IMG/VR virus record: IMGVR_UViG_3300042384_001374
Location: 1 to 64,000 of that record
Origin: a virus
Length of the DNA stretch: 64,000 nucleotides
Direction: 5' to 3' (one strand)
How positions within the stretch are numbered: the stretch's first letter is position 1; each line of letters begins with the position of its first letter. Position numbers and translations under genes: made by a program. Below are positions 5,882-64,000 of the stretch, one piece after another. The notes under the pieces are model-generated. The model searched no databases and was not told where the DNA came from. It saw only the letters and a program-made list of their open reading frames with translations.

Positions 5882-5900
5882 GACGGTTTAGCCGTGGCTA

Positions 5901-5938
5901 AAATAAAGCCCCGCCCCCACATGACGCGAGGACGGGAC
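5901..5938 (-). terminator. Probable intrinsic terminator
   Basis: On the minus strand, hairpin GTCCCGTCCTCGCG..TGTGGGGGCGGGGC followed by TTTATTT, after the 5947-6228 gene. Confidence 0.55.
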
Positions 5939-5946
5939 AAGTTAAA

Positions 5947-6325: not shown

Positions 6326-7783
6326 TTAGCCGAGCGAACTGCCGTCGATGATGCGACCGTCAGGACGAGGCACCGCAAGGTGGCGGATGACAATTCCGTA
6401 TTCCGGATTGACCGGGCGGGTGCCGTTGGCCATCACCATCAGGAATTGACCCATGTTGCCAAGCGGGTTGTCTTGCTTGTCTTCGTAGTTTTTCCATTTT
6501 GGCGTTCCGATGTAGTCGGTAGCCATGAAGGTGGCGTCGTCCACCGAAGTGATCGGACGCGGAACCTCGCTGACGCAGACGCCTTGATGGAACACGTAGC
6601 TGTCTTCCCAAGTGGCGATGAGCCATTTCTGATTGGGCGTGCGCTTGAGGGCGAGACCGGAACCGGAATAGACAAACCGTGGCACCTTGAGCCATGCGGT
6701 GAACGCATTGGAGGCAGAGAACGCGGTGATGGCTGCGCCGTCGTCACGAACCACGAAACCGGTAGTGGTTGAAGTGGCGGTTTTGACGATGTACTTGATG
6801 CCACCGGCAATGATGGTCGAGCCTTTAGTGAGCTGTGCGGCATTGGTGGAAGTGGCACCCAACGCGGCCGACAGGGTGTAAGCACCCGTGGTGACAACAA
6901 TGGCGAGGGTTGGAGTGCCTGCGGTGGCGTAGGATTCCCAGCGGTCGCAAGTTTCGTCGAGTGTGTGAGCCCAGCCGTTGTAGCTCCATTTGGTGCGCAT
7001 CGAACCGAGCAGCTTTTCGTTTTGGCTCGAATAGCGGAAATCCTCGCGGACATCCGGGTCGTCCATGATCAGGCGGCGGCTTTGGCGTGGCGAAGTAATG
7101 AGCGAATAGACAGGACCGGCATTGGCTTCACCCAGCGAATCACCGCCAGCGCCTTGATGGTTGAGGTATTCGTAGAACTCATCCAAGAAGCCGTTGCTCA
7201 AAATTGAGCTTTCAGTGCCAGTGGCGGCCGGAAAGACAACGCGGTTGTAGTCGTCCAAACCAGTCAGGTTCATGCCGGAGTCAAGCACGACAAGGTTGCC
7301 TGCGATGCGTTTGTATTCGGAACGCTTGCGGTCAATCCAGTATTCGCGGCCTTGGTCGGCGAGCGCTTTGACGCACGCGCCCATCTGGGTGGCACGAACA
7401 AATTTGTCGCGCAATTGCTCGACGTTGACGTAAGGTCCCCAAATCGACTTCCACTGGAGGTTGTATTCACGCAGCGTCTGACCGAACACGACGTTGTCGG
7501 AAGGTGGGATGTGGCCGTCTGTTTTTTCCGCTTGATGGTTGGCGTGGGCGTCGTTGAACGAAACGTCAGGCACCATGTCAGTCCAGTCCACTTCATCGGC
7601 TCCACCAGCCACCATGGCGCGGTCGAACTGGAAGGTTTTCTGTTTGGACGATTTCTCGTCCTTCCAGAATTCCTGACGATAGAGAGTGATCCACGGGGTG
7701 GGTGCCGCCATCATCTTTTGGTTGATGTCGGTGGAGATTTGAGCTTCGCGCTCGACGAGGTAGTCTTGGATGGTCGTAGCCAT
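6326..7783 (-). CDS. Major capsid protein (putative)
   Basis: 485 aa, follows portal and scaffold, has a long leader and its own terminator. A central Thr/Ala-rich insertion suggests an extra surface domain. Confidence 0.7.
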   Translation of the reverse strand: MATTIQDYLVEREAQISTDINQKMMAAPTPWITLYRQEFWKDEKSSKQKTFQFDRAMVAGGADEVDWTDMVPDVSFNDAHANHQAEKTDGHIPPSDNVVFGQTLREYNLQWKSIWGPYVNVEQLRDKFVRATQMGACVKALADQGREYWIDRKRSEYKRIAGNLVVLDSGMNLTGLDDYNRVVFPAATGTESSILSNGFLDEFYEYLNHQGAGGDSLGEANAGPVYSLITSPRQSRRLIMDDPDVREDFRYSSQNEKLLGSMRTKWSYNGWAHTLDETCDRWESYATAGTPTLAIVVTTGAYTLSAALGATSTNAAQLTKGSTIIAGGIKYIVKTATSTTTGFVVRDDGAAITAFSASNAFTAWLKVPRFVYSGSGLALKRTPNQKWLIATWEDSYVFHQGVCVSEVPRPITSVDDATFMATDYIGTPKWKNYEDKQDNPLGNMGQFLMVMANGTRPVNPEYGIVIRHLAVPRPDGRIIDGSSLG

Positions 7784-8031
7784 GGGAGTGGTTTAGTTGA
7801 GAGTTGGTTTGGTTTTAGCCACGGCTAAAATGCGTGGCGGTTTGAAAGAAATGCCGGAAGCAGCGACGGGTCAGAAATGACTCGGTCGTTTGGTTTGCTT
7901 TAGGACCCAACGTGGGAACGGCGGCTTGAGAGTATTCAGTCCCCTCTCAAAGCTTCAGGGACGAACGGGGTTTACCTTTATTCCGCTTGATTGTCAACCG
8001 AAAAACTTACGCTTGGTTGATTTTTTTCAAA

Positions 8032-8138: not shown

Positions 8139-9395
8139 TTAGAGAACCAAATCGGCTTCCATGAAATCATCCATAAACGAACGAGCTTTCTTGGCTCCGG
8201 CCGGTATCTGGACCACCGAACTGCCGGTGTCAGGCTTCGCCTTGAGGGCCTTTTTGTCGCCTGCGCGGTATTCGGACAGCTCGCGTTGCAACGAGATGAT
8301 TTGCTTCTGGGCAAATGGCAGCAAAGTTCCGGCGAGAGCCGCAAATGCCTGATCCGAAGCGCGGGCTTGGCTGAAGTCGAGCGACAGGCTTTCGTTCTTC
8401 ATCTTGGTGTATTCCAGAGTGGGTTCGCCGTCGTCGTCCAGCAAACCGGGGATCGCCTTTTCCCAGCGGCTCCATTTGTCCTTCTGGATGGTCTGCACCG
8501 CTTTGCGTTGATCGGCTAGCGACTTTTCGGTGGCTTCGATGCGCTTGGCTTCACGCTGGCCCATTTCCTTCTCGGCGTTCTCCATGAAGCCCGCATGCTT
8601 GTCGAGCAGGTCGGTCACTTTGCCGATGGCTTGAAACACCTCTTGTTTGCGGACTTCAGAAAACCCGGCAAGGTGGGTCTTGATCATCTCGTCCTGCACC
8701 CTCATGTCATCCTCGCGGACCAAGGAGCGCAGCACGGACGGGTCCATCTCGTAAACCTCGGACAACTTGTCGAGCTTGGCGTGGATTTGGCCCCACGGCT
8801 CGCGCACTTCCTTGATGTATTGGTCGTCGTTTTCGACCATCACCTTGGCGGAGACGCCGGAAAGTTCCTTGATGCGCTCGCGCAAACCTTCTGTTTCTTG
8901 GGCTTTGGTTTTGAGTTCTTCCAGCTCTTGAGTGAGCGCAGCGGGAGGAGCGGCTTGTTTGGCGGCTTTCAGCTCGGCTTTGAGAGCTTTAAACTTTTCT
9001 CCTGCCTTAGCGTCCATCCCTTTCACTTCCTCTTCCGTCTGCTTGTCGAAAGCGGCTTCGTCAAATGCGCCGGGGTCTTTGACGACTGGCTCAAGTTCGT
9101 CTGCCTTGCTGAATCCCTCGTCCAGTCCTTCGATAGCCTCCACAGGCTTCTCTGCGGGCTTAGAGACGACTTCCTTGACGGGCGTAGCAACAGGGGCCTC
9201 AGCAGCCTTCACGGGCTCCGCAGGAGTGGCATAAACAGGCTCTGCGGATTTCACCGGCTCGGCCTTGGCGATTGGTGCGGCTGGACCGTCAAAGAATTCA
9301 TCCATCCCCGCAATCAACCCCTTTCCGGTAGGATCGCCCCATGCTTGGGGTTGCATTTGTTCTGGCGCGGCAATCTGTGTTGTTTCGGTGCTCAT
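8139..9395 (-). CDS. Scaffolding-like protein
   Basis: Acidic Pro/Ala/Glu-rich N-terminus and coiled-coil body; located between portal and capsid. Confidence 0.55.
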   Translation of the reverse strand: MSTETTQIAAPEQMQPQAWGDPTGKGLIAGMDEFFDGPAAPIAKAEPVKSAEPVYATPAEPVKAAEAPVATPVKEVVSKPAEKPVEAIEGLDEGFSKADELEPVVKDPGAFDEAAFDKQTEEEVKGMDAKAGEKFKALKAELKAAKQAAPPAALTQELEELKTKAQETEGLRERIKELSGVSAKVMVENDDQYIKEVREPWGQIHAKLDKLSEVYEMDPSVLRSLVREDDMRVQDEMIKTHLAGFSEVRKQEVFQAIGKVTDLLDKHAGFMENAEKEMGQREAKRIEATEKSLADQRKAVQTIQKDKWSRWEKAIPGLLDDDGEPTLEYTKMKNESLSLDFSQARASDQAFAALAGTLLPFAQKQIISLQRELSEYRAGDKKALKAKPDTGSSVVQIPAGAKKARSFMDDFMEADLVL

Positions 9396-9652
9396 GTTAT
9401 TGGTGTTTCAGGCTTGAATCGGCGGTGGCTGGTGGTAACCGCCTTTTTGGCGTCCACGCTAGCGTAAAGAGTCGTGACAAGCAGCTTGGCCCCTTCCTGC
9501 ACCTTGTAGGCGAGGGCAGCGGACTCGACGGTCGCCATTCCGGAATGGTTGGTGATGACGCTGGAAAGTGCGTTCTCAAACGCCGCCTGCAACAGCGGGT
9601 TGGCAAGCATCTCCCGAAGTTCGGTTTTCTGGTGTTCGCTGAATGGGTCCAT
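9392..9652 (-). CDS. Hypothetical protein (portal-adjacent)
   Basis: 86-aa ORF translationally coupled to the scaffold gene. Confidence 0.6.
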   Translation of the reverse strand: MDPFSEHQKTELREMLANPLLQAAFENALSSVITNHSGMATVESAALAYKVQEGAKLLVTTLYASVDAKKAVTTSHRRFKPETPIT

Positions 9653-9684
9653 GGTGTGTGTTTTAGTTGTGGCTAAAGCAAATC

Positions 9685-12294: not shown

Positions 12295-12440
12295 AAAAGG
12301 GTGGGGTTACTACCCATTGACAGCGGGAGTGCCACTGTCTTGCTGAATCTACGGAGAATGTCAAGAAATCCTGCATAGATGACGGATTTCCATTCTGGTG
12401 TAATGGGTAACATCTGCCTGATTTTAGCCGCAGCTAAAAC

Positions 12441-15338
12441 TCAACGCCGCATTTTGCTGCCGCAAGTAGTCGTCAAACCGATCTTCTGCTTCACTTTTTC
12501 CCAGCCCCGGTTGGCCATCTTGCTGACCTTCTTCACTTCCTCTGAACGAAAGCGTCCCTTAGTGACAGCCTTCTCCACCAACAACAGGAAGGCGTCAGCG
12601 CGGTCGGGCGATTTTTTCAGCCGCTTCTTCGCTTCGTCCTTACCCTCCACCCGCACGGTGCGGCCTTCCTTGGCGTGATACTCGCGCTCCACCAGCTCGG
12701 CCATCGTCTCAATTGACAATCCGCTGATCTGGTTGGAACGGATGAACTCGGCCGGTTGAATCCACAACTCTGAGTTTTTGTTGTAATAGGTGCAGTCTTC
12801 GTTGCGAAAAAGCACGGTGCGGTCGGACGCCTTGCCTTGGAAATTGACCTTCTGCACCGCAGGCGACCACTCCACGTCCACGATGTGCCCAAACGGAGTG
12901 CCCGCTCCGGTGTTGTCGTGGATGGCGTCGCACGGTTTTACTCCCATTTGGATGCCCATGTCCCGCCACTTGCGAATAATCTGGTAGCTGAGCGGGGTGG
13001 TCTTGTCGGTGATGTCGTCCTCGATGGTGGTTTCAAGGCAAACGTGCAGATGATCGCGGCCGTTTACCTTCCCAAGCTTGCCGAAAGCCGCTTGCGAACG
13101 GTCGCCGCCGCGTGAAAACGACGGGTCCAGCGATTCGAGAATTTCCGGATGCGTGTCCCACGCTGGTTCGATTTGGCTCAGGGCGCACGAAATGAGAAAC
13201 TCAGTTTCGGAGTAGATCGAATTGGCGGAACCGTCCGGGCACCAGAACGCCTTGACGAACCGGTAGTAACCCCGCGACTTCTTGCCGCCTCGTTGACCCG
13301 CAATGCGGTCGCAATACGCCTGATCCGGCTGCCAATGAAACTTGTGTCCATCCGGGTGGGTAATGCGCGGGCTTTCTTCAGCATTAAAGCGCACGCATTT
13401 GCCGTATTTGGTGCGCCAACGCATCTGGGATTCGTTCACCGACTTCCAGCCCTCGTCAGGTTCGCAGAGGTCGCCGAATGGATCGGTGAGCTTGTCCGGG
13501 TTGGCCATGCCTGCAAATGTCAAAGTTTCGTTGGAAATCAAGTTTTCGGAAGCAGTCTTAAGGATACCCGGATGCAGCTCGTTGAACTCGTCCGCCGCCA
13601 CAACCACCACCGGGTTCTTGATTCCGAGCAGCTCTTTGGATGCTTCCTCCCCGTCTGCTTTGCCCGCCGCCTTAAGCACGATGCCCGAGTTGCGCCACAG
13701 TTTGCCGTTGGCATCCACTCCCTTAATGTAGCCGTCCGAGTCAATGAGCTTGCCGGGACAACCCATGATGGACGCCTGCCCCCACAATTGAGTGAGCGAC
13801 TTCCAAACCCGCATTCGAGCGTCTTGTTTGGTGGTAGACATGATGATGAACCAAGTCTCAGACGGGCGACCCCAGTAGGCCATCAACCCGTAAAGAGCCA
13901 CCGCGTCGCTCTTGCCCGAGTTGTGATGAATTACCCCTTCCGCAAAGTAGTGCCCCTGAATTGGCACGGTCACATCGTAGAACTCGCAAATCCCAAGATT
14001 GGTGATTGACTCCACCTGTGGAAGTGAGACCATCAAATACGATGAAACATCAGAATAAAGGCTGGAGCAAGCATGTGGAACGGAATCAAAAAATTGCGGA
14101 TCTGTTCCGAGAGATGAAAAGCACCCGTCTGGTTGCTGACGAGGTTGGAATGTCGGTGAAAATGATTGGCTATATCCTGAACCGGCAGGGCATTCCGACA
14201 CCAAGGACTGGAATGCGCTGTAACCCTTACGCAGCTTGCGACCGAAACTCAGCGCTAGTGCTAAAAATGTGCTCCGAAAGCTCCACTCTGAACGAGATGG
14301 CGGAGGCAGTTGGAACCGTAGGGCGGGAGGTGAAGAAATTCCTTCGTCGGAATGGCGTGACAAAAGAGTTTCCAAAAGCTCCGCACACCGGAGATCGTCA
14401 TCACCAATGGAAGGGCCGGACGGTGGACAAGGACGGCTACATTCTGATTCATCACAAAGGTCATCCGAATGCGCGGAAGCACAGCCACTTTGTTCTGGAA
14501 CATCGTCTGGTGATGGAAAGCGCTCTAGGCAGGCATCTATTGCCAACTGAAGTCGTTCATCACCGCGATGGAAATAAGCAGAACAACCAGATTGAAAATC
14601 TCCAGTTGTTTGCAAGCAATGGAGAGCATCTTGAAGTGGACCTTGCTGGACGGTGCCCGAAATGGAGCGAGGAAGGGAAGGCTCGTATCCTAGAAGCGAC
14701 GCGCCAACGCTGGCTTCGCGAGCACGCTTCCAGCCGTCCGGAGTCAGAATTAAGTGGTCTCCAGTGCATTTGAACGATTTTCCATTGCTGAGCCGAAATT
14801 CAAACATCTCGGCCTTTCCTTTGAGGTAAGGAGTTTCGGCCAGCTCCGGACCATTCAGCGTCATAACCCACGGTCGCTCACCCGCATCAGAGAGTTCTTT
14901 GATCGTCGGTTCCTCCCATGTGGTCGGATCAAAAATCCGGGTGTCTCCTGAAACGCAAGACGAGCACCCGGCATAGCCGACAAAATTCTTCTCTCCCTTA
15001 TCGGTGATGCACTCGCGCAAAATCGTCTCGGTCCATTCGTTCCAGATAATACGCCTGATCGAGCCGGGGCAGTTGAACGACAGGTCGATGGCTCGGCGTA
15101 GGTAACGCCAGCGGTCGTCCTTGGTCGGCGGTGCACCCGTGCGAGAGCCTCCACGCCACTCAGCTTGGAAGCACATGAACAGACAGGCCGTCAGCTCGGA
15201 CGTTCCATTCGGAAAACCAGCCCCGTCCAACCAAACCGAGCCATCGGCATCAACTGTGTAAGGCGCAGGTTCAAAGAGCCCTTGCGGGCTGGGCGCTATC
15301 GCTGTGGTCATGCCTTCCACTACCAGACATTCAACCAA
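12441..15338 (-). CDS. terL: Terminase large subunit containing an intein
   Basis: Walker A is split by the intein (YAGCSS|SGKS). Also has Walker B VVVAADE, nuclease motif SLDPSFSRGGD and C-terminal KSPDRADA. Confidence 0.9.
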   Translation of the reverse strand: MVECLVVEGMTTAIAPSPQGLFEPAPYTVDADGSVWLDGAGFPNGTSELTACLFMCFQAEWRGGSRTGAPPTKDDRWRYLRRAIDLSFNCPGSIRRIIWNEWTETILRECITDKGEKNFVGYAGCSSCVSGDTRIFDPTTWEEPTIKELSDAGERPWVMTLNGPELAETPYLKGKAEMFEFRLSNGKSFKCTGDHLILTPDGWKRAREASVGASLLGYEPSLPRSISGTVQQGPLQDALHCLQTTGDFQSGCSAYFHRGDERLQLAIDACLERFPSPDDVPEQSGCASAHSDDLCDESECSRPCPPSGPSIGDDDLRCAELLETLLSRHSDEGISSPPALRFQLPPPSRSEWSFRSTFLALALSFGRKLRKGYSAFQSLVSECPAGSGYSQSFSPTFQPRQQPDGCFSSLGTDPQFFDSVPHACSSLYSDVSSYLMVSLPQVESITNLGICEFYDVTVPIQGHYFAEGVIHHNSGKSDAVALYGLMAYWGRPSETWFIIMSTTKQDARMRVWKSLTQLWGQASIMGCPGKLIDSDGYIKGVDANGKLWRNSGIVLKAAGKADGEEASKELLGIKNPVVVVAADEFNELHPGILKTASENLISNETLTFAGMANPDKLTDPFGDLCEPDEGWKSVNESQMRWRTKYGKCVRFNAEESPRITHPDGHKFHWQPDQAYCDRIAGQRGGKKSRGYYRFVKAFWCPDGSANSIYSETEFLISCALSQIEPAWDTHPEILESLDPSFSRGGDRSQAAFGKLGKVNGRDHLHVCLETTIEDDITDKTTPLSYQIIRKWRDMGIQMGVKPCDAIHDNTGAGTPFGHIVDVEWSPAVQKVNFQGKASDRTVLFRNEDCTYYNKNSELWIQPAEFIRSNQISGLSIETMAELVEREYHAKEGRTVRVEGKDEAKKRLKKSPDRADAFLLLVEKAVTKGRFRSEEVKKVSKMANRGWEKVKQKIGLTTTCGSKMRR
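13920..14957 (-). mobile_element. Intein (346 aa) inserted in the terminase Walker A motif
   Basis: N-terminus CVSGDTRI, block B KCTGDHLILTPDGW, C-terminus FYDVTVPIQGHYFAEGVIHHN followed by Ser +1. Confidence 0.93.
14042..14773 (+). CDS. HNH homing endonuclease encoded antisense inside the intein
   Basis: HQWKGRTVDKDGYILI..HP..VLEHRLVMESALGRHLLPTEVVHHRDGNKQNNQIENLQL is an HNH_3-type motif, preceded by two HTH-like segments. ATG 14042, 243 aa. Confidence 0.9.
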   Translation: MKHQNKGWSKHVERNQKIADLFREMKSTRLVADEVGMSVKMIGYILNRQGIPTPRTGMRCNPYAACDRNSALVLKMCSESSTLNEMAEAVGTVGREVKKFLRRNGVTKEFPKAPHTGDRHHQWKGRTVDKDGYILIHHKGHPNARKHSHFVLEHRLVMESALGRHLLPTEVVHHRDGNKQNNQIENLQLFASNGEHLEVDLAGRCPKWSEEGKARILEATRQRWLREHASSRPESELSGLQCI

Positions 15339-15352
15339 CCGAAAAGACTTTT

Positions 15353-15607
15353 TTAGCCACGACTAAAATCGCACTTCGGCAACATAGACGCAAGTTTGTC
15401 AAATTCAGCTCGATTCCTTTCGATCCAGACGCGCTCCACTTCTTCTTGAAAGAATCGAATTACCTCACGCATCTGATTCCTCTTTATCTCACTCGTTGCA
15501 GCGACGCTAGGAGCCGCTTGAACTTCAACTGCGGCACATAGTGAGGGAGCGATAAACGGAGCGCTCACAGCGCCCGTCAGCAGGGTAAAGAAGGAACGTC
15601 TTTTCAT
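15353..15607 (-). CDS. Small protein with twin-arginine-like signal peptide
   Basis: MKRRSFFTLLTGAVSAPFIAPSLCAA. Confidence 0.5.
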   Translation of the reverse strand: MKRRSFFTLLTGAVSAPFIAPSLCAAVEVQAAPSVAATSEIKRNQMREVIRFFQEEVERVWIERNRAEFDKLASMLPKCDFSRG

Positions 15608-15656: not shown

Positions 15657-16001
15657 CTAGTCAATCCCGCTTTCATCGTTCTCGTTTTCGTTTTGGCAGA
15701 CTTGGCAAATGCACGAATACCCGGTGTTTACGCCGCCTTTTTCAATCAACTCTTTCACCTCGGCGTCCGACAAATCCATTTCCTCTTTCATCTGATTCAG
15801 CAGCTCAACCGGGGCGTTCTCATATGACCCCGGCGCTTCCCCATGCCACGTTAAATCCTCCCCCTCCCAGTCCACCGCAAACCCGGTTTCAAGCATGCAT
15901 TCCGGATCAGCCGGGAACTCCGCTCCACACCAGTCACAAAGCCACAGCACGGGTTCAAGTTCCATAAACCGCATTCCAGACCCAGATATCTTGAATGTCA
16001 A
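15657..16001 (-). CDS. Hypothetical acidic Zn-binding protein
   Basis: CDWC and CICQVC motifs; true start uncertain. Confidence 0.5.
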   Translation of the reverse strand: MTFKISGSGMRFMELEPVLWLCDWCGAEFPADPECMLETGFAVDWEGEDLTWHGEAPGSYENAPVELLNQMKEEMDLSDAEVKELIEKGGVNTGYSCICQVCQNENENDESGID

Positions 16002-16529
16002 GCTGTCGGTAATTCTTTAGCCACGGCTAAAACCCAGTTGCCAATCACCCATGAACATCAAACCGCTTTGTCGCTCACCAAACGTCAATCCGCGTACATC
16101 AAACGAATTTTTTTAGCCGGGATTTTTTTATTTTTCGTGAGTGATTTTTTCTGAATCTGTCACATGGAACCCATGCTGTCATCCTCGTCCCTGTGACATC
16201 TCGCGCAACAGAGGAGACACCCGTCGCCCCTGCAAGCCACTGAGATACAACACAACACCAATAGAACGATACGACAATGAACAAGATCAACATCACCATC
16301 CAACAGTCAGCCTACCACGCACAGCTTCAGAACCTTGAGACACGAAGACTCAGCATCCTTGCGTTGGCGCGCACTGGCACACCTGATGTGCCTGCGGGTA
16401 ACGCTAATGGTCAGGGTCCACTCATTGATGCACTCAAGGAAGTAGAACGTGAGATGGCGCGGGTATTCACGCTGTCGATGACGAGCTGGCATTGACTGCA
16501 TCGCGGAGCCTGACCGCACAACAGGCAGT

Positions 16530-16832: not shown

Positions 16833-17465
16833 GCAGCAAGCGTAAAACAAAGCGCCAATCGCATGCAATCCTTTTCCCTCGCTCGGTGGACACCACTGAG
16901 CCCTCTAGGGAATCTAGAGACACGCACCAGCCGTGAACCTACGCTGGCTTTACACGTATGAAAGACATCATCTATGAACTGGGTCAAGTGGCCCTGAAGA
17001 CCATTTGGCTCGCCTTGGCGGTTGCAGCCGTCATCGGTGTGCTCAAGGCAATGTCTTGGGCCGACACTGGTATGCGCACCCTTGGCATCGAGGAGGTGCA
17101 GCCATGATCCACTATTCGTCGCCCGATTGGGTAGGTGAGATGCTGGTCATGCTTTACGGCGGTGAGCAGTTGGAGTTTGAGTTTTAGCCACGGCTAAACG
17201 AGTTGGAGCGCCAGTCAATTGGCTGGTGTCTCCTTCTCCTTTCGGGTGCGCGGGTCGAGAGCTAGGCTCTCCCTGCGGTGGTTGGTTTGGGCTGGGCCCT
17301 GAATCCCCAGTCGTGATCCCATCCCATCCCGTATTGTATTTACGATATCAATCATTCTGAGAGGTAAGAGGCTGCTGCTTATTGTCTTTATTGGTCGTCT
17401 GAGGGTTCTCAGGCACTTCGCGCTATTGCGAAGGCAAGACCAATGCGACACAACCACACACGTCC

Positions 17466-17711: not shown

Positions 17712-18059
17712 ACGACTGTTTGACACTTCGCAGAGTGGCCCTTCGGGGTTAATGCGGCAGTCAGGTCACACTGGCTCTGGTCACAAGCCCAGACAACAAA
17801 AATAGTTTTGAAGTGGTTTCATTGATAACACAGTCACTTGTGAATCCTTAGTAAACCACTCAAGTTACTATTGTCTTGATCTAACGCTGACCCTCCCACT
17901 ATCCTTGGTACAGCGCTAAGCGGGTGTGCACCTCGCCTAATCTCCTCGCTTCAACTCAAATTCATCACACAGGGAAGGCTTAAGAGTCTTATTTGAACCC
18001 CTGATTACTTCAGTATTCCGAATGGTTCGCCTGATTTGCAGCTTGGCTAAAACGTACAC

Positions 18060-22657: not shown

Positions 22658-22706
22658 TTATCTTGGGTTGCGCCATATACGCACGATTCACCGACGTAAT
22701 CGGTGA

Positions 22707-40326: not shown

Positions 40327-40363
40327 ATTCCATTTTAGCCACGAATAAAACAACCACTCAATC

Positions 40364-41560: not shown

Positions 41561-41604
41561 AATTGATTTTAGCCGCAACTAAAACTGAAAGGAGCACCCG
41601 ACCC

Positions 41605-50640: not shown

Positions 50641-50699
50641 TGCCCGACCGCACGAATAATCAGCGAAGCAAATAATGAAATTTTAGTTGAGGCTAAAAC

Positions 50700-56600: not shown

Positions 56601-59600
56601 ATCATACCAGTTATAATTGTCGGATTCCTCCTCGTCCAACGTGACCGATTCTTCGGTGGCGCGGTCCACATGATCTTGATCGTGCTCTTGAGCGCCTGTG
56701 TTGGCCCGCAGGATGTTGCGGATGCCTTCCTGAAGCGCCAGCTCTACCGGCTCGGCCAGCAAAGTGTCGGCAAAGCCGTCCACTCCGATGTAAACCTTGT
56801 CGAACAACTCTTTGGCTTTCGGGTTAGTCAGCACTTCGGCGACAATCAGAATGTCAGACGCCGTCGATTGGTCGTCGCCAAACATGTTGATGAGAGCCCC
56901 GCCGTCACCATCCAAGCGCAGCGTGCGTCCAAGCTCAGCCACGTCAGACAAGTGTCCAGACGGGTCCGCCGCAATCGACTCGGGGAAGACGGCCGGGTCA
57001 AGCGACAGCCGGATGATCCGCGCCATCTCCGCAACCTGCCCGCGCACCGCTTCGTTCTTCGACGCGATCTTGAGCGACTGGGCGATGCCGCCGAAGCTCT
57101 CGGTGGCGTTTTTGTCCGGATTCTTCTGGCTACTTGGCGAATACACCACGTTTGGTCCGCCATCCGTTCCGGGGAAAATTTTGAAGCCAACATCATCCAA
57201 CCCGTAGCGAGTCACTTGGCTGTCCTTCGGCGACACGACCAACGTCTCGCCCGGAAACGTCTGGATGAGCTGTGACAAAATCGGGTTGCCGATGCCGTCG
57301 ATGCCGTGGACCAGCATCGAGGCGTCATACACCATCACCTCGTCGTTGCTGGTCATGCTGCCCTTCAACATCCGGGCAATGGCATCAGACTCTTCTGGCG
57401 AAGCCATTGAATTGGTCTGCAAAGAACTTTTTGCCACTTTGCGATATTTTTTAACATCGCGTTTGACGGGTTTTTTCGGTGTTCCCTGCTTGACCTGCTC
57501 CAAGTAATGTTTTGAGTCAAAACGCTCACCCGCGCCATTTTCCAATGACCAGAATTTACTTCCCGATCCTTCAACGTAAGAAAGAATGGTATTGGATGAC
57601 TTTCCTTGCCATCCCTCACCACGATACGCCCATTGATAACCATTTTTGGCATTCGGAATTTTAGGCAGTCGGGAAAATAACAATTCCTCATCAACCGTTT
57701 CATTCACAATGAACTCTTCATCCGTTTCCACGTTTCCGCCAGAATACTTGGGAGGGTTTACACCCGGATTGTTAATGGTTCCGTTCGTATCCACGATTTC
57801 CTCAACCCGGCCAGCAGCCAGTTTAACCACAGCAAGCGCTCGGCCGATCTTGTGGCCCGCCTTAGCTTCTTCAACGATGGTCGCCTCAAACGACTGCTTA
57901 AGTTCCAACAAGCTCACTAGCACCGTCTCAACCGATGGGGTTTGCCCAGTCAAGTTGGATAGCTCTTTTTCCATTTCATCGTAGAACGCTTCCGGATTGC
58001 TCATGCTTTTGGCCAGCGGGAATGTGCCCCGGATGCCCTTGCGGACGAGCTGGCGTTGTTCGTCGCGGCTTTTGTGGTCGTTCTCCATTGCCCACAGGTC
58101 AAACAGGAAGGCACGTCCAGCGTCGATGTCGAGCGTGTCGCCGTTGCTCTGCGAACCAATCATCAAAGCGGCTCCGGTAAGCGCCATGCGGCGTTGGTTT
58201 TCGGGTCCAGCAGCTTGGTCGATGGCCACTTCGGCAGCCGTCTTCACGCGGTCACCGTCCAACGACTCCATCATGGATTGAACCGTTTCCGAACGATTAG
58301 TGCGCTTGTCGTCATCAAACACATTCGGGTCAGTAATGTTGCCCGTTTTGTTGTAGATCATCGGCATAACGCCTTCGCCCCGATTGGAACGGTTGATCAT
58401 CTCCAGAAGCTCAAAGGCGAAGTTGGAACCAAACACGTAGTCGCGCTGTTTTTCGTGGAACTTCATCAGCCACGAGAGGTTCGACAGGATGCGAGCGTCA
58501 ATCGGAGCATCGCGCAGGCGCTCAAGCTCCGCATTGTCTCCCGTGTAGGAAGCTTCCCGCTGCCAGCGTGATCCCTCGAACGCCACGTTGTCACGCCATT
58601 GCTGGTCGCGAAATTCTATCAGTGCCTTGTTGGTGAGGCGGGCCGCGTCGTTCGCACCATCCAAACGGGCACGCACGTTTACGATCATCCCGTCGAACAA
58701 CTCGGCTGCCACCACTCCGTGGTCTTTTGTAAGAACCATCTGCAAGTCGTCCAGCAAGCGGATCAGGCCGTTGGTTTCCGTCTCCCCGCCGATCTGACGC
58801 AGGAATGCCTTGTTGTTGAACTGACTTTCAATGAGCCCCTTCACCCGGCCCGCCAGTGTCTGTTTGCCGCCAAGCTCGGTGATAAGCGGCGCGAAGCCAT
58901 CGGCAATATCCTCCTTCGGCTGGCTGACCAATGCGACAGTTTCCTTGGCCCATGCTTCCATTTGGGAGACGTGCGCGATAAGCGCTTTGCGGGCTGGCTG
59001 GTTCTTGTCACCCTTGCCCTTGGCGAGCTTCTGCGCTTCGTTGGACGCTTTGAACACAAGGTCGTTGAACATCTTTACGTCCGCCGTGCGGAACGCGTTG
59101 GCGGCGCGATAGCGGTCAGCCCCGATCTCCGAATTAGTGTCCTTGGGCAAGGCAAAGCCCCCGGTGTGCCAGTAGGTGTCCGCTTCCTTGGTGTCACCAA
59201 TCTTGCCGTCCACCCAGTCCACGAAGAATTGGAGCCACTGCATGCGCCCGGCATAGGCGGCGTTGCTGTTGCCAGCAATTTCAATAACGGCACGCTCTTG
59301 GTTGTCCATCACCTGATCCGGAGTCAACGGGTCCATCCCCTTGCCTTCTTCATACCAATGCAGCTTTGGACGGAATCCGAGATAGCGGCCGGTGTCTTCA
59401 AAGCGCACGCCAAACGTATCGTTCTTGTTGCTAGACGGCGCGATGCTCGGTGCGGACAAGTTGTCCAATGCGGACGGGCTTGAGATGCTAGTCGGGAAGC
59501 TCAGGCCCTCACCGCGCCCTGTGCGAGCTTCGCGGTTCAGGTCGCGCATGCCCAAGCCAAATTCTTTCGGCCGCGTCCACACGTCCCCAAACGCAAGACG

Positions 59601-62600
59601 CTGAAGGTTCTGGATCGAGCCGTTGTAAGTGTCCAGCGCTTCCTTAAACTGCATAAATTTTGACATCCGTTGAGACGACAAAGGAACTTCCGGGACATCC
59701 CATTGAACCGAAAAAGATTTGGCTTCAGCCTCCGAAGCGCTGCGACGTGCATCCGCAAGTTCAGTTTCGAGAATTTGTAATTGGTCGGCAACTTTAACCA
59801 TAGGCAACATCACATCATCAGATGTTGAAATAAGCGGCTCTGCCGTTCGTCCCATGTATGATGAATGCTGCTCCAAGTTGACAGAGCGTTCCAAAACCCG
59901 AGCTTTCAAACGCTTCATGATGGTCGTCACGTCATTCGGGTTGATGCCTTCACGGTCAAATGGATTCTCCAATCGAAACCTTTTAGCCGTGGCTAAAATC
60001 GAACGACGCCCAATGTTCGTGCGCGGGTCCATCGCATTGATCAAAGTTTGATCGCGTCCAGCTTGCTTCAAGCGAAGCATCGCCATCTTTCCTTCAATCG
60101 CCCGGACACGTTGTTTGTGCATGACGGAAAGCTGGCGGTAATCTTCAGCCTGCTGTTCTTTCGGCACCGTGTTGTCGATGTGCTGACGGATGCGGGACAG
60201 CGTCTTGCCCGCATCAGGACCACCCAGCTCCAATGCCGGTGTGATGTCAAAGTCCATTGCCGCCATCCGTGCCTCCATTACCTGACGGTTGAGAAACACC
60301 AAAGTCTTGGCCCGCTCAAAACCAGTTTGATCAGCTGACAAATCCGATTTTTCGTCGTTGATGTCGGCCAACAGCGCGTCAATGCGCTGCATCGCGGCGG
60401 ACGTTCCCGAGTCGTCCAAAGCAAAATCGGCGACGTACTTCTCAAGGTAGTCTTTGATGATCGGTTTCAGGCTCATCGCCAGCGTCTCGCCGTCGATGTC
60501 GAACACGCTCTCGAACTTGGTGTTGGGGAACTGGTCCACGATTTGGCGCAACTCCGTCACCGCTTGGAAGTGCTCGGCGGTGATTTTGTTGCCCCACTTC
60601 AAGTGGGCCTCGGTGCCTTCGCGCTGCATCTCCAGCGTGCGCTCCAAAGCATCTTCCCGAGCGAAGTTCACGTCCCCTTGCACGCCAGCCTGACGGTATG
60701 CTTGATCCAAGCGGAACAACATCTGTTGCTGGCTTTGCGGGAGCTGACCGATGGTCCAGCGCATCGCGAGGATGTTCTTAATCCGGTCGGAGTAGCGTTT
60801 CACCAACGCGGCCACCGTGTTAACCAGCTTGCCGATCTTGCCAGTCTCGTCCGCGTCCATGTTGATGGACCCTTGCAGCCACTGGCTTTCGTTGCGCACC
60901 GCACGTTCAGTGTAAGAGCCGCTATGACGAAGCTGGTGCAGTTTGCGGATCAGTTCCGCCGCTACCGCGTAGTCTGCGCCCTTGACGAATTTCAGACCCT
61001 TAGCCTTGTCTTTTTCCTTCGGGTCCACTGAACGGCCGGGGTAGCGTTCCGCAGCCGTCTCAACCAGCAGTTTGTAAAATGGATGTTCCGGATTCTTGGC
61101 GATGTCCTTGTAGAGCTGTTCCAGTTCGGCGTCCTCAAAAACGTCCTTGGTGAGCAGGTGGAGCGTTTCTTCGTCCACCCAGTAAGCCAAGACCCGCGCC
61201 ACATCGGCGGCAAGGATGTTTTTGGCCAAATCAGACGACATGTTCACCCCGGCGTATTGTTGGCGAAGTTGCTCCTTCAACTTACTGAAGTCCACCTCGA
61301 TGCGGTTGGTCTGCAAATTGGCCCTTAAGAAAGAAGCTCCTTCTTTAGACAAATCCAGCTCTGCCACTTTGTTTTTAAAGTTGGGCGATACCACATCCAT
61401 CACGCCGCTCAATGCCGAACGAACTTGTGAGACAGTAACGCTTCCATTGGCGATACCGGGAAGCAGCGGCTTGATCAGTTTCGCCGCTTCCGTAAGCCGG
61501 GTCTTGTTCCACTGGATGTTGCGCACCCCTTGGTTAAGCGTGCGCAGCGAAAGTCCTTCCGGCGACAGGCTGACTTTGCGGAACGTCCACTTGCCGTTCT
61601 TCGCAGAGTCGAGCACGAGAATGGAATCGGGCTCACCTTGGATCAGGACAGTCTGCCCCACTTTCACCGAGAGCGTCTGGCCCTTTGGGGCCTTGTAGGT
61701 GTAAACGATCTTCTCCCCCATGCCGTCCTGCACCGCGTTCTCCTTGGCGCGTTCCTGCTCGCTCTGCTCCTGCATGTTGACCCGCTCCCACTTGCCGCCA
61801 GCCTCGTCGGTCTGGCTCTGCTCGATGGTGTCGGACGCGACGATCAGAGCGCCCTCCGGGTCTACTGCGTCAATCGCGGAGCCCTCAAATTTTTCATCAG
61901 ACACTTTGAGCGCATCCAGTTTGGCAATGGATGAATTGTTCTTCCTTTTCCTTCTTGGAAGACGCCGTTTGCCTTGACTTCTGTTTTGCGCTAACTGGCC
62001 ATTCATTCCAAACGACCTGTATCCAAGCACCCGAGTTTTTGGAAACGCAGCGACATTTACCGAATCTTCGGAATTACCACTAAGCAAAATGACGTGGGTT
62101 GATGTTTCGCCAAGAACAAAGCCCGTATGTCCGCCCCAACCATTTTTCCCGCCAGTGGCCGGATTGTTGTTCCAAAGGACCGCAACGTCACCGTAAGATG
62201 GAGATGTGGTTTTTTCACCCATATTCAAAAACGCTCTGGCTGAGAAGTTTTTAACGGACGACCCACCCTGTCTCAGTGACCATGATGTGAATGCGGTGCA
62301 CCATGGGAAAGTGGAAGGGCTCTGAGAAACGCCCAAGCTGACCAGCATCGACTTAATTCGAGATGAACTTTTCTCTTTTTCGTTAAGCAATGCGGCCCCG
62401 GCATTCACCGAAGGATCACTTCCCTGACGCAACCACCACTTGCTGATTTTTCCGGGCAAGACAATCGCGTCATCCGGCCCGAATTCATTGCTTGATGCGA
62501 TAAAGTTCTCGGTGGATTCAAGACTTGGCCCCACATTAGTCGTCTTTGTCTCCACCTCAACCAATGGCGCGGGAATATCAATGCTGACGATGGACGGAAA

Positions 62601-64000
62601 AGGAAGCGTCGACTCGTCAAGAATCGCTACGTTGTCTTTCGCCACCAACGGCAATTCATTGGAACTTGAATCAAACTCGGCATCTTCAAATTCATCCTTC
62701 GATTCAAAGACTGGAGCTTCATAAGAAACTTCCAAACTCGCCACCATTGGAGACAGCTCGGCCACCGAAGCGATTTCCTGATTGGTCGAGTTCGGAGCGA
62801 TAGAGATTCCGGCAATGGCAATGGCCATCATCTTGGCCGAAGTCCAAATCTTATCTCCAAAACGAGAAAGCTCTTTTGAAAATCCGCGAAGCCAAACAAG
62901 GAACTTGTCTTTGCTGCCAAACTTCAAAGCCTCCACCACGGCTGTATCAACCAACGTCGGAGCAGCTTTCCTGATTTCCTCCAAAGGAGCCTCATCAGGA
63001 AGTGTTTCAAGGCTCTCTGATTCTTTTTTAGTTTCAGCGATTTCCTTCAAATCCTTTTCGGAAACAGGCTCTTCAGCTTTTACTTCCGCTTTCGGTTCAA
63101 CCGGAGCAGTTGTTGCAGCCGGAACCTGAGGTAATGATTCTCTAAACCGTTGTAAAGCAGTAGCTAGTTTAGTGGCGCTCAAATTGTCCCTCATCGTTTT
63201 CACACGAATGTCGATGTCGGAGGCAATCAACTCCGAGTCGTCGTCATGCTTTTCCTGAAGCTCGCGCAGCAAACGCGGCTCCACCGTCACCTTGCCATCA
63301 CGCCCGACCCACAACCCGGTTTCTTTGATGCCGTCCATTTCGGCTTGGTGGCTGGATACGGTAAATCCTCCCGACGAAATGGTTTTGACCTTTGGCTTGG
63401 GCGCGACCGTCGCCTTATTGGTCGAATCAATCCGAACGGCATTGGCGGTGGCTTCTTCGTCTTTGGTAAGTGTGTCGGTAGACGATACTTCTGGTTTAGC
63501 CGTGGCTAAAGCCGGGTCAGATCCCGCAGGTTTTGCTCCACCACTTCCGGTGGGAGCAGATTCCACCCCTTTGCCTGCATCCGTTCCCGCATTGCTCGGG
63601 CTTTTTGCCACAGGCGTTTCCGCTGTACTGGTGTTGTTTTCATTAGATGGTGATGATCGAAGAAGAGAGGCTATCATTTCCGAGGCATCAACGCGACTCT
63701 TCTCGTCGCTCATTGATTCAGTGATACGTCCAAGTCTGGAAACTTGACTCTTCATTCGAGATAGCTCCGCTCCTTTTTGAGAATCATCCAAGCTCGCCAT
63801 TTTCTTGTAAGCCGTCGCAACCAACTTTTTAAGTTCAGGAGACGCTTCTTTCCATTCTTGAGCCCATGCTTTTTCCGCTGACTCTTGGCCTCCTCTAGCC
63901 AAAATGTCTTGGTGATGAAACACCTCTTCATCAATAACTATGTCAAGAACGGCCTCCCACGTATCTTTGAACTTTTTCTTGATCCGTGAAAGAAATCCGG
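50700..64000 (-). CDS. Giant (>4430 aa) virion/ejection polyvalent-type protein with a TIGR02594/CHAP-like peptidoglycan hydrolase domain; partial at the 5' end
   Basis: The frame is open from the window end (GFLSRIKKKFKDTWEAVLDIVIDEEVFHHQD...). PWCTAFTSWSL..SARAF..GDVAVL..GHTGFV..LLSGN..V lies at about 62010-62370. Two EExxH zincin-like motifs are present. Confidence 0.8.
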   Translation of the reverse strand, partial: GFLSRIKKKFKDTWEAVLDIVIDEEVFHHQDILARGGQESAEKAWAQEWKEASPELKKLVATAYKKMASLDDSQKGAELSRMKSQVSRLGRITESMSDEKSRVDASEMIASLLRSSPSNENNTSTAETPVAKSPSNAGTDAGKGVESAPTGSGGAKPAGSDPALATAKPEVSSTDTLTKDEEATANAVRIDSTNKATVAPKPKVKTISSGGFTVSSHQAEMDGIKETGLWVGRDGKVTVEPRLLRELQEKHDDDSELIASDIDIRVKTMRDNLSATKLATALQRFRESLPQVPAATTAPVEPKAEVKAEEPVSEKDLKEIAETKKESESLETLPDEAPLEEIRKAAPTLVDTAVVEALKFGSKDKFLVWLRGFSKELSRFGDKIWTSAKMMAIAIAGISIAPNSTNQEIASVAELSPMVASLEVSYEAPVFESKDEFEDAEFDSSSNELPLVAKDNVAILDESTLPFPSIVSIDIPAPLVEVETKTTNVGPSLESTENFIASSNEFGPDDAIVLPGKISKWWLRQGSDPSVNAGAALLNEKEKSSSRIKSMLVSLGVSQSPSTFPWCTAFTSWSLRQGGSSVKNFSARAFLNMGEKTTSPSYGDVAVLWNNNPATGGKNGWGGHTGFVLGETSTHVILLSGNSEDSVNVAAFPKTRVLGYRSFGMNGQLAQNRSQGKRRLPRRKRKNNSSIAKLDALKVSDEKFEGSAIDAVDPEGALIVASDTIEQSQTDEAGGKWERVNMQEQSEQERAKENAVQDGMGEKIVYTYKAPKGQTLSVKVGQTVLIQGEPDSILVLDSAKNGKWTFRKVSLSPEGLSLRTLNQGVRNIQWNKTRLTEAAKLIKPLLPGIANGSVTVSQVRSALSGVMDVVSPNFKNKVAELDLSKEGASFLRANLQTNRIEVDFSKLKEQLRQQYAGVNMSSDLAKNILAADVARVLAYWVDEETLHLLTKDVFEDAELEQLYKDIAKNPEHPFYKLLVETAAERYPGRSVDPKEKDKAKGLKFVKGADYAVAAELIRKLHQLRHSGSYTERAVRNESQWLQGSINMDADETGKIGKLVNTVAALVKRYSDRIKNILAMRWTIGQLPQSQQQMLFRLDQAYRQAGVQGDVNFAREDALERTLEMQREGTEAHLKWGNKITAEHFQAVTELRQIVDQFPNTKFESVFDIDGETLAMSLKPIIKDYLEKYVADFALDDSGTSAAMQRIDALLADINDEKSDLSADQTGFERAKTLVFLNRQVMEARMAAMDFDITPALELGGPDAGKTLSRIRQHIDNTVPKEQQAEDYRQLSVMHKQRVRAIEGKMAMLRLKQAGRDQTLINAMDPRTNIGRRSILATAKRFRLENPFDREGINPNDVTTIMKRLKARVLERSVNLEQHSSYMGRTAEPLISTSDDVMLPMVKVADQLQILETELADARRSASEAEAKSFSVQWDVPEVPLSSQRMSKFMQFKEALDTYNGSIQNLQRLAFGDVWTRPKEFGLGMRDLNREARTGRGEGLSFPTSISSPSALDNLSAPSIAPSSNKNDTFGVRFEDTGRYLGFRPKLHWYEEGKGMDPLTPDQVMDNQERAVIEIAGNSNAAYAGRMQWLQFFVDWVDGKIGDTKEADTYWHTGGFALPKDTNSEIGADRYRAANAFRTADVKMFNDLVFKASNEAQKLAKGKGDKNQPARKALIAHVSQMEAWAKETVALVSQPKEDIADGFAPLITELGGKQTLAGRVKGLIESQFNNKAFLRQIGGETETNGLIRLLDDLQMVLTKDHGVVAAELFDGMIVNVRARLDGANDAARLTNKALIEFRDQQWRDNVAFEGSRWQREASYTGDNAELERLRDAPIDARILSNLSWLMKFHEKQRDYVFGSNFAFELLEMINRSNRGEGVMPMIYNKTGNITDPNVFDDDKRTNRSETVQSMMESLDGDRVKTAAEVAIDQAAGPENQRRMALTGAALMIGSQSNGDTLDIDAGRAFLFDLWAMENDHKSRDEQRQLVRKGIRGTFPLAKSMSNPEAFYDEMEKELSNLTGQTPSVETVLVSLLELKQSFEATIVEEAKAGHKIGRALAVVKLAAGRVEEIVDTNGTINNPGVNPPKYSGGNVETDEEFIVNETVDEELLFSRLPKIPNAKNGYQWAYRGEGWQGKSSNTILSYVEGSGSKFWSLENGAGERFDSKHYLEQVKQGTPKKPVKRDVKKYRKVAKSSLQTNSMASPEESDAIARMLKGSMTSNDEVMVYDASMLVHGIDGIGNPILSQLIQTFPGETLVVSPKDSQVTRYGLDDVGFKIFPGTDGGPNVVYSPSSQKNPDKNATESFGGIAQSLKIASKNEAVRGQVAEMARIIRLSLDPAVFPESIAADPSGHLSDVAELGRTLRLDGDGGALINMFGDDQSTASDILIVAEVLTNPKAKELFDKVYIGVDGFADTLLAEPVELALQEGIRNILRANTGAQEHDQDHVDRATEESVTLDEEESDNYNWYDSTPDAPEIEALKEAKTFEELQEIMEGRRQSTKFDDDRKANRFGPDAPRINKRLAKELQGNGLNPSDAFLFNGLARIIEQGKAAGGVFPMAPSNERTTSDILSAPLDPTGQGISTDKLRIAVAGPALQGNVEKGLKAATKMYVGEMRNLTIPKVSGRTSQNIAFQKRNIDSTNSSLLLRAPAVRTLVGAAVVKKAISKFSKDADASGFGLVDVNLPLDDAMMESIRMALPAGVLDAAELEAKLSLDTLEKNQTRLNELREALLAEIGAYEADNGQAFQELLDNSPEGANLLATAKDWSESLKAETRDMVVAHVTRFAEMMKDDSGNAANLGHVVHLMLTEGMENNPQLKAAVDGLYKQANAIGALVRERNTLLTPDENNELPQGDTQGINSRISDAARLFNLHVSIFNSHAEMHARQVMRWTGVDPKKANLSGFRLKTFKETDDFTRQEQTDVMNSLSGMLNGRKFAQGFMDNMVREITQGVTAGAKPKMQTNAFMRMVSEELMKNETIDLPAFIDEEINKLLDSNEGFVSDPEQSIDEIFRAARNFENLSTQKQQVLIGVDLQRALQDIALTTNQARALLSSKARSVEQEQGRKEAAIYLGRVERELEQTRNELSVIDSNKGKVPVGMGYYSGRASQGQKNDQSGGLLTKAIDEKVTYKAQLTLTNPLPPVSDDVQAPASASSEPSGTMSRRDYWIRQKAVITALTEQSENRIEDAYKFVRGSRDQFMNFDPLKAINQAVDLVQLEEQIVKEVMQDAHSDAQEAQYKGMTADAAAYLSDPEEALTLTRTAQNRVKQINLPKSHQLRKEKLGVLINQEGEKVIMMPLNARELLMQHFPKITKRNVNREMERIILDALPVNQGVPAQGSYSYFLAGTEKEVGKDFDGADFSPAKQNLKKGEAAKAFSDDWRKGMQTWLDDAMSSVTGAKRTADLTGDVSKKQLDQFGYMIERLVIAHGDTRLSDSTKAKIKTLLKSIDSGEFAKVGGSSVKDMDVSRMLAFRVEPVFSLAFAEIEAIEIQKCLITDFVSFDGKKHALELGALKFLHHQDARIRSKFRRNFAARQAAIHLQDFIEYGIDGTSGRQGYETSKKAEEEKIVKAAKPIGNNAKDQTIGYLISVFRGIDTAFGMHRETATNRLVTDIGRGLNELENLNRAQGLYFGELVKGPDGKAVLDANKNPIPTGKVIPKLNRYWNADNLDMIRDLELAREVRGWMLESGISNTIISSPEIAKELTDKFIALLESKVTLGNEAAVEGYAQQLNRSFADISSAMQLTMAMLSQDAAVDKQPGELLKGERMVTGESWRDDAKEAFKITYSSVPLRVGYAARPDPAEQQVSSDRFIADPIDMVSLKDSSFFGGYGKGGYFNSRNPFRPISLNGLTAPLSLLDDAIYKLNVTPTYEVLRRSLGRVVQDEHGVNTIKDGDFLNKANEMIPDDIDWNDPAQRKAKQEAEDEIKKFRQALSAIAEENETILQNDAANGVSNTGGAEAMRFLGSLYIVRALASLQQVWNQTTGPSVGYAAGKIAVGKGKQAAQYFSILQKLITDRKFNEQAREFVRKTDRSVYYRSADGADVARDIMHSQVRFGKSTAKNLAGKGLREYEKLGEKALHWTIGKGESYLSTAMFIVELADQMKMEPADVVKSNVEPTAMAKSNARRKVNDVMAQSDQSKKSWMFQNRTSSPGRNALWRSMVRFSNHTSSMASNTSVLVPILFDEKADAETKKEALENVVTSLTQNILFYPFKLQMLVPMVSYLFFLAGGDDDDKAQKKAQKLANEWMFVDKKSSMLGEVIKTITFGNKRELFDQTKKADAAQASAFAEIASRSLLELTTAVPVLGVMAGYAPVSGLVQKTVTNPMAIAGAAGLNNTFNRKQLKAGFGSYDKNGVTIRSYKDSWHGSLADLTAPTAMAHDALEAGVLTSQYLMSREAQRNRAASLLDAATYLTFEAIPFAREPRAEKRAEMREVIRKENK

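Follow-up and report, generated by a model that had tools for sequence, protein, structure and literature searches.

What is the role of an 18-base-pair (bp) palindrome that recurs along the genome of an uncultured tailed phage, both at the borders of its genes and inside them? The DNA in question, referred to below as the window, comprises positions 1 to 64,000 of the IMG/VR record IMGVR_UViG_3300042384_001374, a complete phage genome of 76,099 bp. The comparison of this genome with its relatives favors, with a probability of roughly 0.5, the interpretation of the palindrome as an operator-like site in duplex DNA for a phage-encoded dimeric binder, arrayed over the genomes of an entire phage family.

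The initial annotation of the window described about 30 copies of the palindrome, and 30 sites with no more than 3 mismatches were indeed identified there, between positions 5886 and 63511. That annotation took the window for the whole phage genome; the remainder of the record contains 3 further sites beyond 64 kb, bringing the total to 33 sites in 76,099 bp, as against ∼0.3 expected. When the palindrome is searched as two 8-bp arms around 2 central bases, the whole genome contains 4, 12, 11, and 6 copies at 0, 1, 2, and 3 mismatches, respectively, compared with 0, 0, 0.03, and 0.27 in second-order Markov controls. For the half-site, TTTTAGCC, the window has 33 occurrences, where 1.66 would be expected. 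An artifact of base composition, a possibility raised in the initial annotation, is ruled out by the excess of both half-sites and palindromes over the controls. The description of the copies as near-evenly spaced did not survive: the coefficient of variation of the spacing is 0.86, compared with 0.96 for uniform random positions (P = 0.25), and one stretch of 11.4 kb has no site at all. The sites are nonetheless spaced more evenly than a random draw of gene starts (P < 0.0002), and in two relatives the spacing is significantly regular (P of about 0.001).

Relatives of this phage were found through its portal-like protein, which has more than 100 homologs on contigs of up to about 80 kb. Alignment of 15 portal homologs led to 50 related viral loci, and five complete relatives were taken whole (G002 to G006; together with the present phage, these are the six genomes referred to below). 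The family consists of uncultured phages of 60 to 80 kb with GC contents from 40 to 58%, and GenBank phages include nothing similar to this phage at the DNA level. The array is present in all five complete relatives, with 11 to 28 sites in each against 0 to 2 for the reversed control, and the motif was also found in about 40 partial relatives. The scan of relatives proposed in the initial annotation thus excluded lack of conservation as an objection. The motif is missing from a relative with 29% portal identity. Some of the sites have kept their positions, for example those about 30 nucleotides (nt) before the homologs of gene 6326-7783 and those just before the homologs of gene 40364-41560.

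The consensus of the site in this phage, TTTTAGC-CACG-GCTAAAA, is symmetric; the information is confined to the 18 bp, and the flanks are random, with no extra conserved elements in them. The arms TTTAG and CTAAA are unchanged in 34 of 34 sites and constant across the family, whereas the spacer between them varies by clade in discrete steps. It is 6 nt long in 30 of 31 sites of this phage and 5 nt long in all 28 sites of G002, while spacers of 5 and 6 nt are found in G003 and of 4 and 5 nt in the most distant clade. These genomes have no site at any other spacing, and a single N3 instance was seen across all sources scanned for the spacer. With spacers of 4 to 6 nt, the centers of the arms are 9 to 11 bp apart, that is, about one helical turn.

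Such a geometry would suit a dimeric, sequence-specific protein, encoded by the phage family, each monomer of which would read one invariant arm (TTTAG, or the longer TTTTAGC in this phage), with both arms on the same face of the helix, one turn apart. With about 33 sites genome-wide, no gene block would be out of reach of this protein, which could serve as a global silencer of transcription, as a roadblock, or as a loader and organizer of the genome, like KorB at its OB operators on plasmid RK2. The proposal in the initial annotation that the distribution fits a genome-wide binding site better than a promoter-specific operator agrees with the symmetry of the site, its invariant arms and bare flanks, the turnover of the copies inside genes, and the family-wide maintenance of the array; binding itself is a prediction from these features.

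The placement of the sites is best seen on the gene map. The GC content of the window is 0.536, and the record carries a 127-bp terminal repeat, apparently an overlap left by the assembly of a circular or permuted genome. Codon usage divides the genes into two arms. The minus-strand arm extends from ∼18.5 kb down to position 1 and then across the junction from 76.1 to 50.7 kb, and it encodes tail proteins, a portal-like protein of 773 amino acids (aa), an intein-bearing terminase, and a giant open reading frame (ORF) of 5,280 aa. The plus-strand arm, from 18.6 to 50.4 kb, encodes Erf, an exonuclease, a single-stranded DNA-binding protein, a resolvase, a DnaB-like helicase, MazG, and a DUF932 protein. 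No integrase, DNA polymerase, or RNA polymerase was recognized among the annotated ORFs. The genes that matter most for what follows are these:

12441-15338, minus strand: terminase large subunit gene, with an intein inside (Pfam Intein_splicing, residues 144-473)
18060-18533, minus strand: gene of a 157-aa helix-turn-helix (HTH) protein, second candidate reader of the palindrome or small terminase subunit; present in all six genomes and in L007
40364-41560, plus strand: gene of a 398-aa core protein, first candidate reader of the palindrome; present in all six genomes
50700-64000, continuing to 66542 past the end of the window, minus strand: giant ORF of 5,280 aa, with five in-frame copies of the motif

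The giant ORF has counterparts of 5,085 to 5,977 aa in all five complete relatives, and its conservation is highest in the N-terminal 800 aa and the C-terminal 1,170 aa. It gave zero sequence matches in Pfam, PHROG, or PDB and nothing above chance in a protein atlas. The 30 sites of the window are distributed as follows:

5886-5903: 1 mismatch; 8 nt before the ATG of 5087-5881 (minus strand)
7813-7830: perfect; ∼30 nt before the ATG of 6326-7783 (minus strand), position kept in G002 and G006
9661-9678: 3 mismatches, sense-strand G-to-A form; between the portal-like gene and 9392-9652 (minus strand)
12422-12439: 1 mismatch; just past the stop of the terminase gene
15351-15368: 1 mismatch; just ahead of the terminase start
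16015-16032: 1 mismatch; before 15657-16001 (minus strand)
17182-17199: 1 mismatch; in a region of small ORFs
18904-18921: perfect; in the region of divergence between the gene arms, with a triloop hairpin ∼15 nt later
20613-20630: 1 mismatch; within the gene of a 615-aa protein, read as ILAKAK
22046-22063: 1 mismatch; before 22143-22310 and the gene of a transfer-messenger RNA (tmRNA)
23253-23270: 2 mismatches, sense-strand G-to-A form; ATG 8 nt downstream
24944-24961: 3 mismatches, sense-strand G-to-A form; ATG 4 nt downstream
26798-26815: 2 mismatches; includes the TAG stop of the upstream gene 26399-26803 and the A of the next ATG, at 26815
27727-27744: 2 mismatches; its own TAG is the stop of 27529-27732
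31224-31241: perfect; immediately past the TAA of 31014-31223 and before the exonuclease gene
32791-32808: 2 mismatches, opposite orientation; a triloop hairpin lies 25 nt before it and the Erf gene ATG 22 nt after it
34904-34921: 2 mismatches; its own TAG is the stop of 34778-34909
36060-36077: 1 mismatch; the ATG of 36068-36322 lies at its center
37410-37427: 3 mismatches; directly followed by a triloop hairpin (37428-37440); missing here in the close relative L038
38500-38517: 2 mismatches; ATG 4 nt downstream; a 250-bp gene absent from L038 begins at the motif
40333-40350: 2 mismatches; 13 nt before the ATG of the first candidate reader gene, place kept in G002 and G005
41567-41584: 2 mismatches; between that gene and the helicase gene
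43560-43577: 3 mismatches; ATG 7 nt downstream
44016-44033: 3 mismatches, the weakest site counted; ATG 12 nt downstream
45151-45168: 1 mismatch; immediately past the TAA of the MazG-like gene 44755-45150
46004-46021: 1 mismatch; spans the entire gap from a TAA stop (46001-46003) to the next ATG, at 46021
50681-50698: 2 mismatches; just past the stop of the giant gene, at the convergence of the gene arms
55718-55735: 1 mismatch; inside the giant gene, read as LATAK
59981-59998: perfect; inside the giant gene, read as LATAK
63494-63511: 2 mismatches; inside the giant gene, read as LATAK

The overlaps with start and stop codons that had been reported for the sites at 26798, 36060, and 46004 were found as described, as were the three LATAK peptides and the single ILAKAK. 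The motif contains TAG in one reading frame and TAA in another, on both strands, and the sole open frame of each strand reads LATAK. Because only one frame is open through the motif, the copies inside genes share that frame and most copies are intergenic. The placement at gene borders would thus be a consequence of stop codons in two of the three frames on both strands, and in an overlong gene the site would be written into the sole open frame. The copies in the giant gene occupy mostly nonhomologous positions in different genomes and the peptide that they encode is not conserved, so that selection acts on the DNA word. Among 47 sites with a gene end nearby, the stop codon lies inside the motif or within the 6 nt before it in 32, and the ATG mostly follows 1 to 10 nt later. 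In G004, a copy of the motif precedes a tRNA gene by 2 nt, and in L030 a copy follows a tRNA gene by about 6 nt; these copies indicate that the motif marks gene borders in general, rather than serving as a translation signal or marking starts.

The window has matches to noncoding RNA families as well. A phage-borne tmRNA gene at 22319-22660 (plus strand) scored 111 bits against Rfam family RF00023, with no ARAGORN call, and relative G003 likewise carries a tmRNA gene (L214, 4837-5196). A match to the Twister-P5 ribozyme (RF02684) at 17729-17792 (plus strand), with 43 bits at a cutoff of 37.6, lies in the small-ORF region between the gene arms.

Deviations from perfect symmetry follow a strand rule that depends on the distance to a start codon. 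Of the 120 sites in the six genomes, 34 are asymmetric and start-proximal, meaning that an ATG with an ORF of 50 codons or more follows within 12 nt. Among these 34 sites, 30 carry G-to-A changes on the sense strand, whereas the start-distal asymmetric sites split 20:23, with no orientation bias. In the present phage, 17 of the 20 asymmetric sites have the coding-strand direction, which agrees with the tendency to follow transcription noted in the initial annotation; the other 13 sites are symmetric, as are 15 in G002. With the sense-strand form, the energy of the potential mRNA hairpin is about −1.4 instead of −5.4 kcal/mol; the opposite form would retain G-U pairs. All six genomes are depleted of Shine-Dalgarno-like motifs ahead of their start codons (0 to 4%, compared with 8 to 14% in random windows), and their leaders are A-rich. 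Judging by these sequence features, translation initiation in this phage family seems to be Shine-Dalgarno independent. The 30:4 pattern is read here as selection against mRNA structure at ribosome-loading sites, superimposed on a symmetric DNA signal. Where a site abuts a start codon, the G-to-A changes would remove an mRNA hairpin that would otherwise hinder initiation of this type.

The same pattern argues against a function of the palindrome as a hairpin in mRNA. A role in transcripts, as punctuation between cistrons and tRNAs, as a processing site, or as the binding site of a translational regulator, would account for the tight stop-motif-start layout, the copies adjoining tRNA genes, a spacer that varies in length as a loop would, and the lack of Shine-Dalgarno use. 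However, the sense RNA nearest to the starts has C-A mismatches and not G-U pairs, which leaves a hairpin of about −1 kcal/mol; the outer positions show no compensatory changes; and the YY..RR symmetry of the inner bases is retained even with the 4-nt spacer, where these bases cannot pair in a hairpin. Nor would such a role explain the selection of copies inside the giant gene, and no known RNA families were found over the motif. A function in RNA is thus considered quite unlikely. The comparable start-associated sequences (SAS and ESAS) of Cluster K mycobacteriophages lie 3 to 7 nt upstream of starts, mostly ATG, often include the upstream stop codon, are absent from the host genome, and have no assigned function (PMC3203893). 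In contrast to the palindrome, they are asymmetric, have a Shine-Dalgarno core, and serve only nonstructural genes (PMC3203893); the palindrome has no such core and is found in both gene arms of the genome, within genes, and beside tRNA genes.

The direction of the start-proximal copies could also be that of a promoter. An unrecognized phage RNA polymerase might use the motif either as duplex DNA, like that of T7, or as a template-strand hairpin, like that of N4, with transcription starting at the 3′ edge of the motif and very short leaders. The sites are phage specific, they lie 0 to 10 nt upstream of starts and 2 nt upstream of a tRNA gene, and the template strand of the directional copies retains G-T-compatible pairing. 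In the region searched, from 15 to 24 kb, neither sigma-70 promoters nor terminators were enriched near the sites, and the former result fits this explanation. T7-group promoters combine constant outer parts with a clade-specific inner part, a pattern similar to that of the motif. The giant virion-type protein recalls N4, and the genome also contains covarying GC-rich triloop hairpins, separate from the palindrome. These points are offset by the lack of any RNA polymerase signature in the giant ORF or other ORFs, with no DxDxD or T7-like motif; the structure model of the 615-aa protein encoded by the first gene of the plus arm (predicted local distance difference test [pLDDT] score of 52) is too poor for a polymerase check. 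Moreover, the symmetric sites, the unbiased start-distal copies, and the copies that lie within the giant gene or where the arms converge would be odd for promoters, and several ATGs overlap the motif, leaving no room for the N4-type geometry (PMC4496689). Like the palindrome, the promoters of the N4 virion RNA polymerase are short inverted repeats, and N4 too has a giant virion-type protein (PMC4496689); some of the spacer classes of the array would give a loop of 3 or 4 nt. N4, however, has three such promoters, all at one end of its genome; their stems are GC-rich, their variation preserves the structure, and the start site lies at a defined distance from them (PMC4496689), whereas the palindrome forms about 33 AT-armed sites everywhere, without covariation and with no polymerase domain found by sequence. 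A promoter function therefore appears unlikely.

The triloop hairpins form a second repeat family, with a GC-rich 5-bp stem and a 3-nt loop followed by a purine-rich stretch. Copies were seen in the window at 30986, 32753, 37428, 46366, and about 18937 and in G002 at 4401, 8058, 12380, and other positions. The stem shows a compensatory change between the copy at 37428 and its counterpart in L038, and three copies lie 0 to 25 nt from a copy of the palindrome. These hairpins may be N4-like promoters or terminators.

A comparison with L038, which is 99% identical to the present phage, bears on a further alternative, that of a recombination linker, i.e., a junction at which an Erf/exonuclease system exchanges gene cassettes between relatives. 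Cassettes of a promoter and a stem-loop have been proposed as such linkers in T4-type phages, and the present phage encodes Erf, an exonuclease, and a resolvase. Two of the three indel borders between the two phages are at motif copies, and the 250-bp segment with a 70-aa gene (38517-38767) that L038 lacks begins exactly at the site at 38500. Across the compared genomes, 9 of 77 synteny breakpoints fall within 25 nt of a site, with 1.4 expected at random. However, about a quarter of gene borders carry a site, and the excess is no larger than expected for breakpoints at gene borders; the copies in the giant gene and the strict spacing of the arms are left unexplained. Exchange between relatives is accordingly an improbable function of the array, although linker activity may be one of its side effects. 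In L038, a 517-bp insertion at 37401-37428 replaces a copy of the motif.

The motif could also belong to the host rather than to the phage, as a Chi-like, uptake-type, or nucleoid-protein site accumulated by the phage; its deep conservation across phages of 40 to 58% GC would fit such a word. A scan of 185,579 prokaryotic genomes, one per species, returned scattered single matches, except for one contig of an Akkermansiaceae metagenome-assembled genome (MAG). This contig carries an element with four perfect copies and one variant within 1.3 kb (L044, 4636-5902; G001:C94, 28636-29902), 3.6 kb from a tRNA-Met gene, and two of the copies are followed by canonical intrinsic terminators after 45 to 60 nt. 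The identical motif in an element with no detectable protein in common with the six phages is a second point for a host word. Against it, the palindrome is absent from the rest of this 5.3-Mb genome, which has 46 half-sites in all, including 10 in the element, compared with 246 occurrences of the reversed control; the role of the MAG as a host is putative. The scan of a candidate host suggested in the initial annotation thus found no chromosome-wide enrichment but a single element in a genome, possibly that of a host, where the half-site is underrepresented. A host-specified word is very improbable, and the motif is borne by mobile elements. Distant portal homologs were detected in 2 of 401 genomes of the order to which the MAG belongs, and the host is probably a member of Verrucomicrobiota, as far as such homology can tell.

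If the palindrome is, as preferred here, an operator-like site, its reader would be encoded by the phages themselves. The best candidate is the 398-aa core protein, whose gene is directly preceded by a site in three genomes. In its structure model (pLDDT 72), a small helical domain at the N terminus is followed by a disordered linker, a second helical domain in the center, and a beta domain at the C terminus. When the model was compared with 48,161 chains, the best alignments were over residues 190-316: a ParB-parS complex (6s6h_B) ranked first, with a weak Z score of 6.5 over 104 residues; Spo0J (1vz0_A) ranked third, with a similarly weak Z of 6.2, and the KorB-operator complex (1r71_A) ranked 20th, with a weak Z of 5.1 over 105 of 114 residues. 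The link of this protein to the ParB/KorB fold is a lead from a predicted structure and no more. The second candidate is one of the two HTH proteins named in the initial annotation: the product of 18060-18533 is a conserved HTH protein indeed, whereas nothing was found for 37037-37450. It matches HTH_7 and Terminase_5, in both cases below the Pfam cutoff, and may equally be the small terminase subunit. No homologs of either candidate were found in GenBank phages or PLSDB plasmids.

The ParB-like organizer, one of several possibilities listed in the initial annotation, comes nearest to the data through this weak fold match and through the identity of the arms to those of the KorB and KorA operators of the IncP-1 plasmid RK2. 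The OB operator of RK2 is TTTTAGC-G-GCTAAAA and its OA operator is GTTTAGCTAAAC, both palindromes with arms identical to those of the phage site (PMC11790492). In both replicons, of 60 to 76 kb, there are many copies, some next to genes and some far from starts. RK2 has about 12 OB sites, and the phage about 33. The two systems differ in the spacer between the TTTAG arms, which is 6 nt in the phage (4 to 5 nt in relatives) but 3 nt in OB and 0 in OA; phage sites do not have the OB geometry of a 13-bp core with 3 nt between the arms. Unlike RK2, the phage replicon belongs to a tailed virus and shows no sign of being maintained as a plasmid, and neither a ParB_N CTPase domain, nor a KorB domain, nor KorA was detected in it; no ParA partner turned up in Pfam and PHROG scans of about 60 ORFs, a part of the total.

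Several observations weigh against a dimeric reader of the KorB kind, and in part against any dimeric reader. The spacers differ between clades, and two of them coexist in some genomes, as would be natural with a hairpin but unusual with a rigid dimer. Immunity operators of phages are usually conserved far less deeply than this motif, and the identity of the motif's arms to those of KorB and KorA could be a coincidence. The Z scores of 5.1 to 6.5 lie in a range that the comparison tool itself flags as common among helical proteins, and the 398-aa protein has no Pfam or PDB match by sequence; a deeper family profile against PDB sequences and Foldseek against PDB also returned nothing. In six-frame searches of the six genomes there were no matches to PF02195 (ParB_N CTPase), for which the control genomes were positive, to PF08535 (KorB), or to PF16509 (KORA). 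Finally, no homolog of either candidate was detected in the 31-kb Akkermansiaceae contig, although this contig ends 1.2 kb past its last site. A more specific version of the preferred reading is rather doubtful. It holds that the family, whose members are probably phages of Verrucomicrobiota, has a KorB-like global system without the ParB CTPase domain, in which one core protein of the ParB/KorB type would read TTTAGC palindromes with a clade-specific spacer at nearly every gene block.

In form, the array is closest to the OB operators of KorB and to the palindromes of Cluster O mycobacteriophages. The latter are 17 bp long, with a 7-bp inverted repeat and a 3-bp spacer, and they resemble the present array in having more than 30 copies per genome, located throughout it between genes, near 5′ ends, or in genes, with no clear orientation rule, cluster-wide conservation, and no assigned function (PMC4351075). 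Their sequence, host phylum, and phage family are unrelated, and they do not vary in sequence; in the palindrome studied here, the inner bases and the spacer change with the clade and with the distance from the start codon. Stoperators of Cluster A phages, another suggestion of the initial annotation, share with the array the tens of sites in short intergenic gaps, the orientation tied to transcription, and the reading of sites genome-wide by one phage protein (PMC9283540, PMC6550527). They are, however, asymmetric 13-bp sites of a monomeric immunity repressor in temperate phages. In the present array, only the start-proximal copies are biased in orientation. A stoperator-like function is less likely, because the site is palindromic and neither an integrase nor a repressor or immunity module turned up.

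Genome-wide palindrome arrays are known in a few cultured phages, such as those of Cluster O, and have no assigned function there. The array described here is conserved over a large, deeply diverged, and otherwise unannotated family, which provides natural variation in the spacer, the inner bases, and the turnover of sites. The match of its arms to the operators of KorB and KorA, the best-understood system of dispersed operators, offers concrete candidate proteins and assays. If the link to KorB is real, long-range silencing and clamp loading of the KorB type would extend from plasmids to lytic-looking phages, and the family would also show how such a site is fitted into a tightly packed genome that does without Shine-Dalgarno sequences. 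An operator half-site common to these phages and the IncP-1 KorA/KorB regulon would then point to either common descent or convergent reading of DNA.

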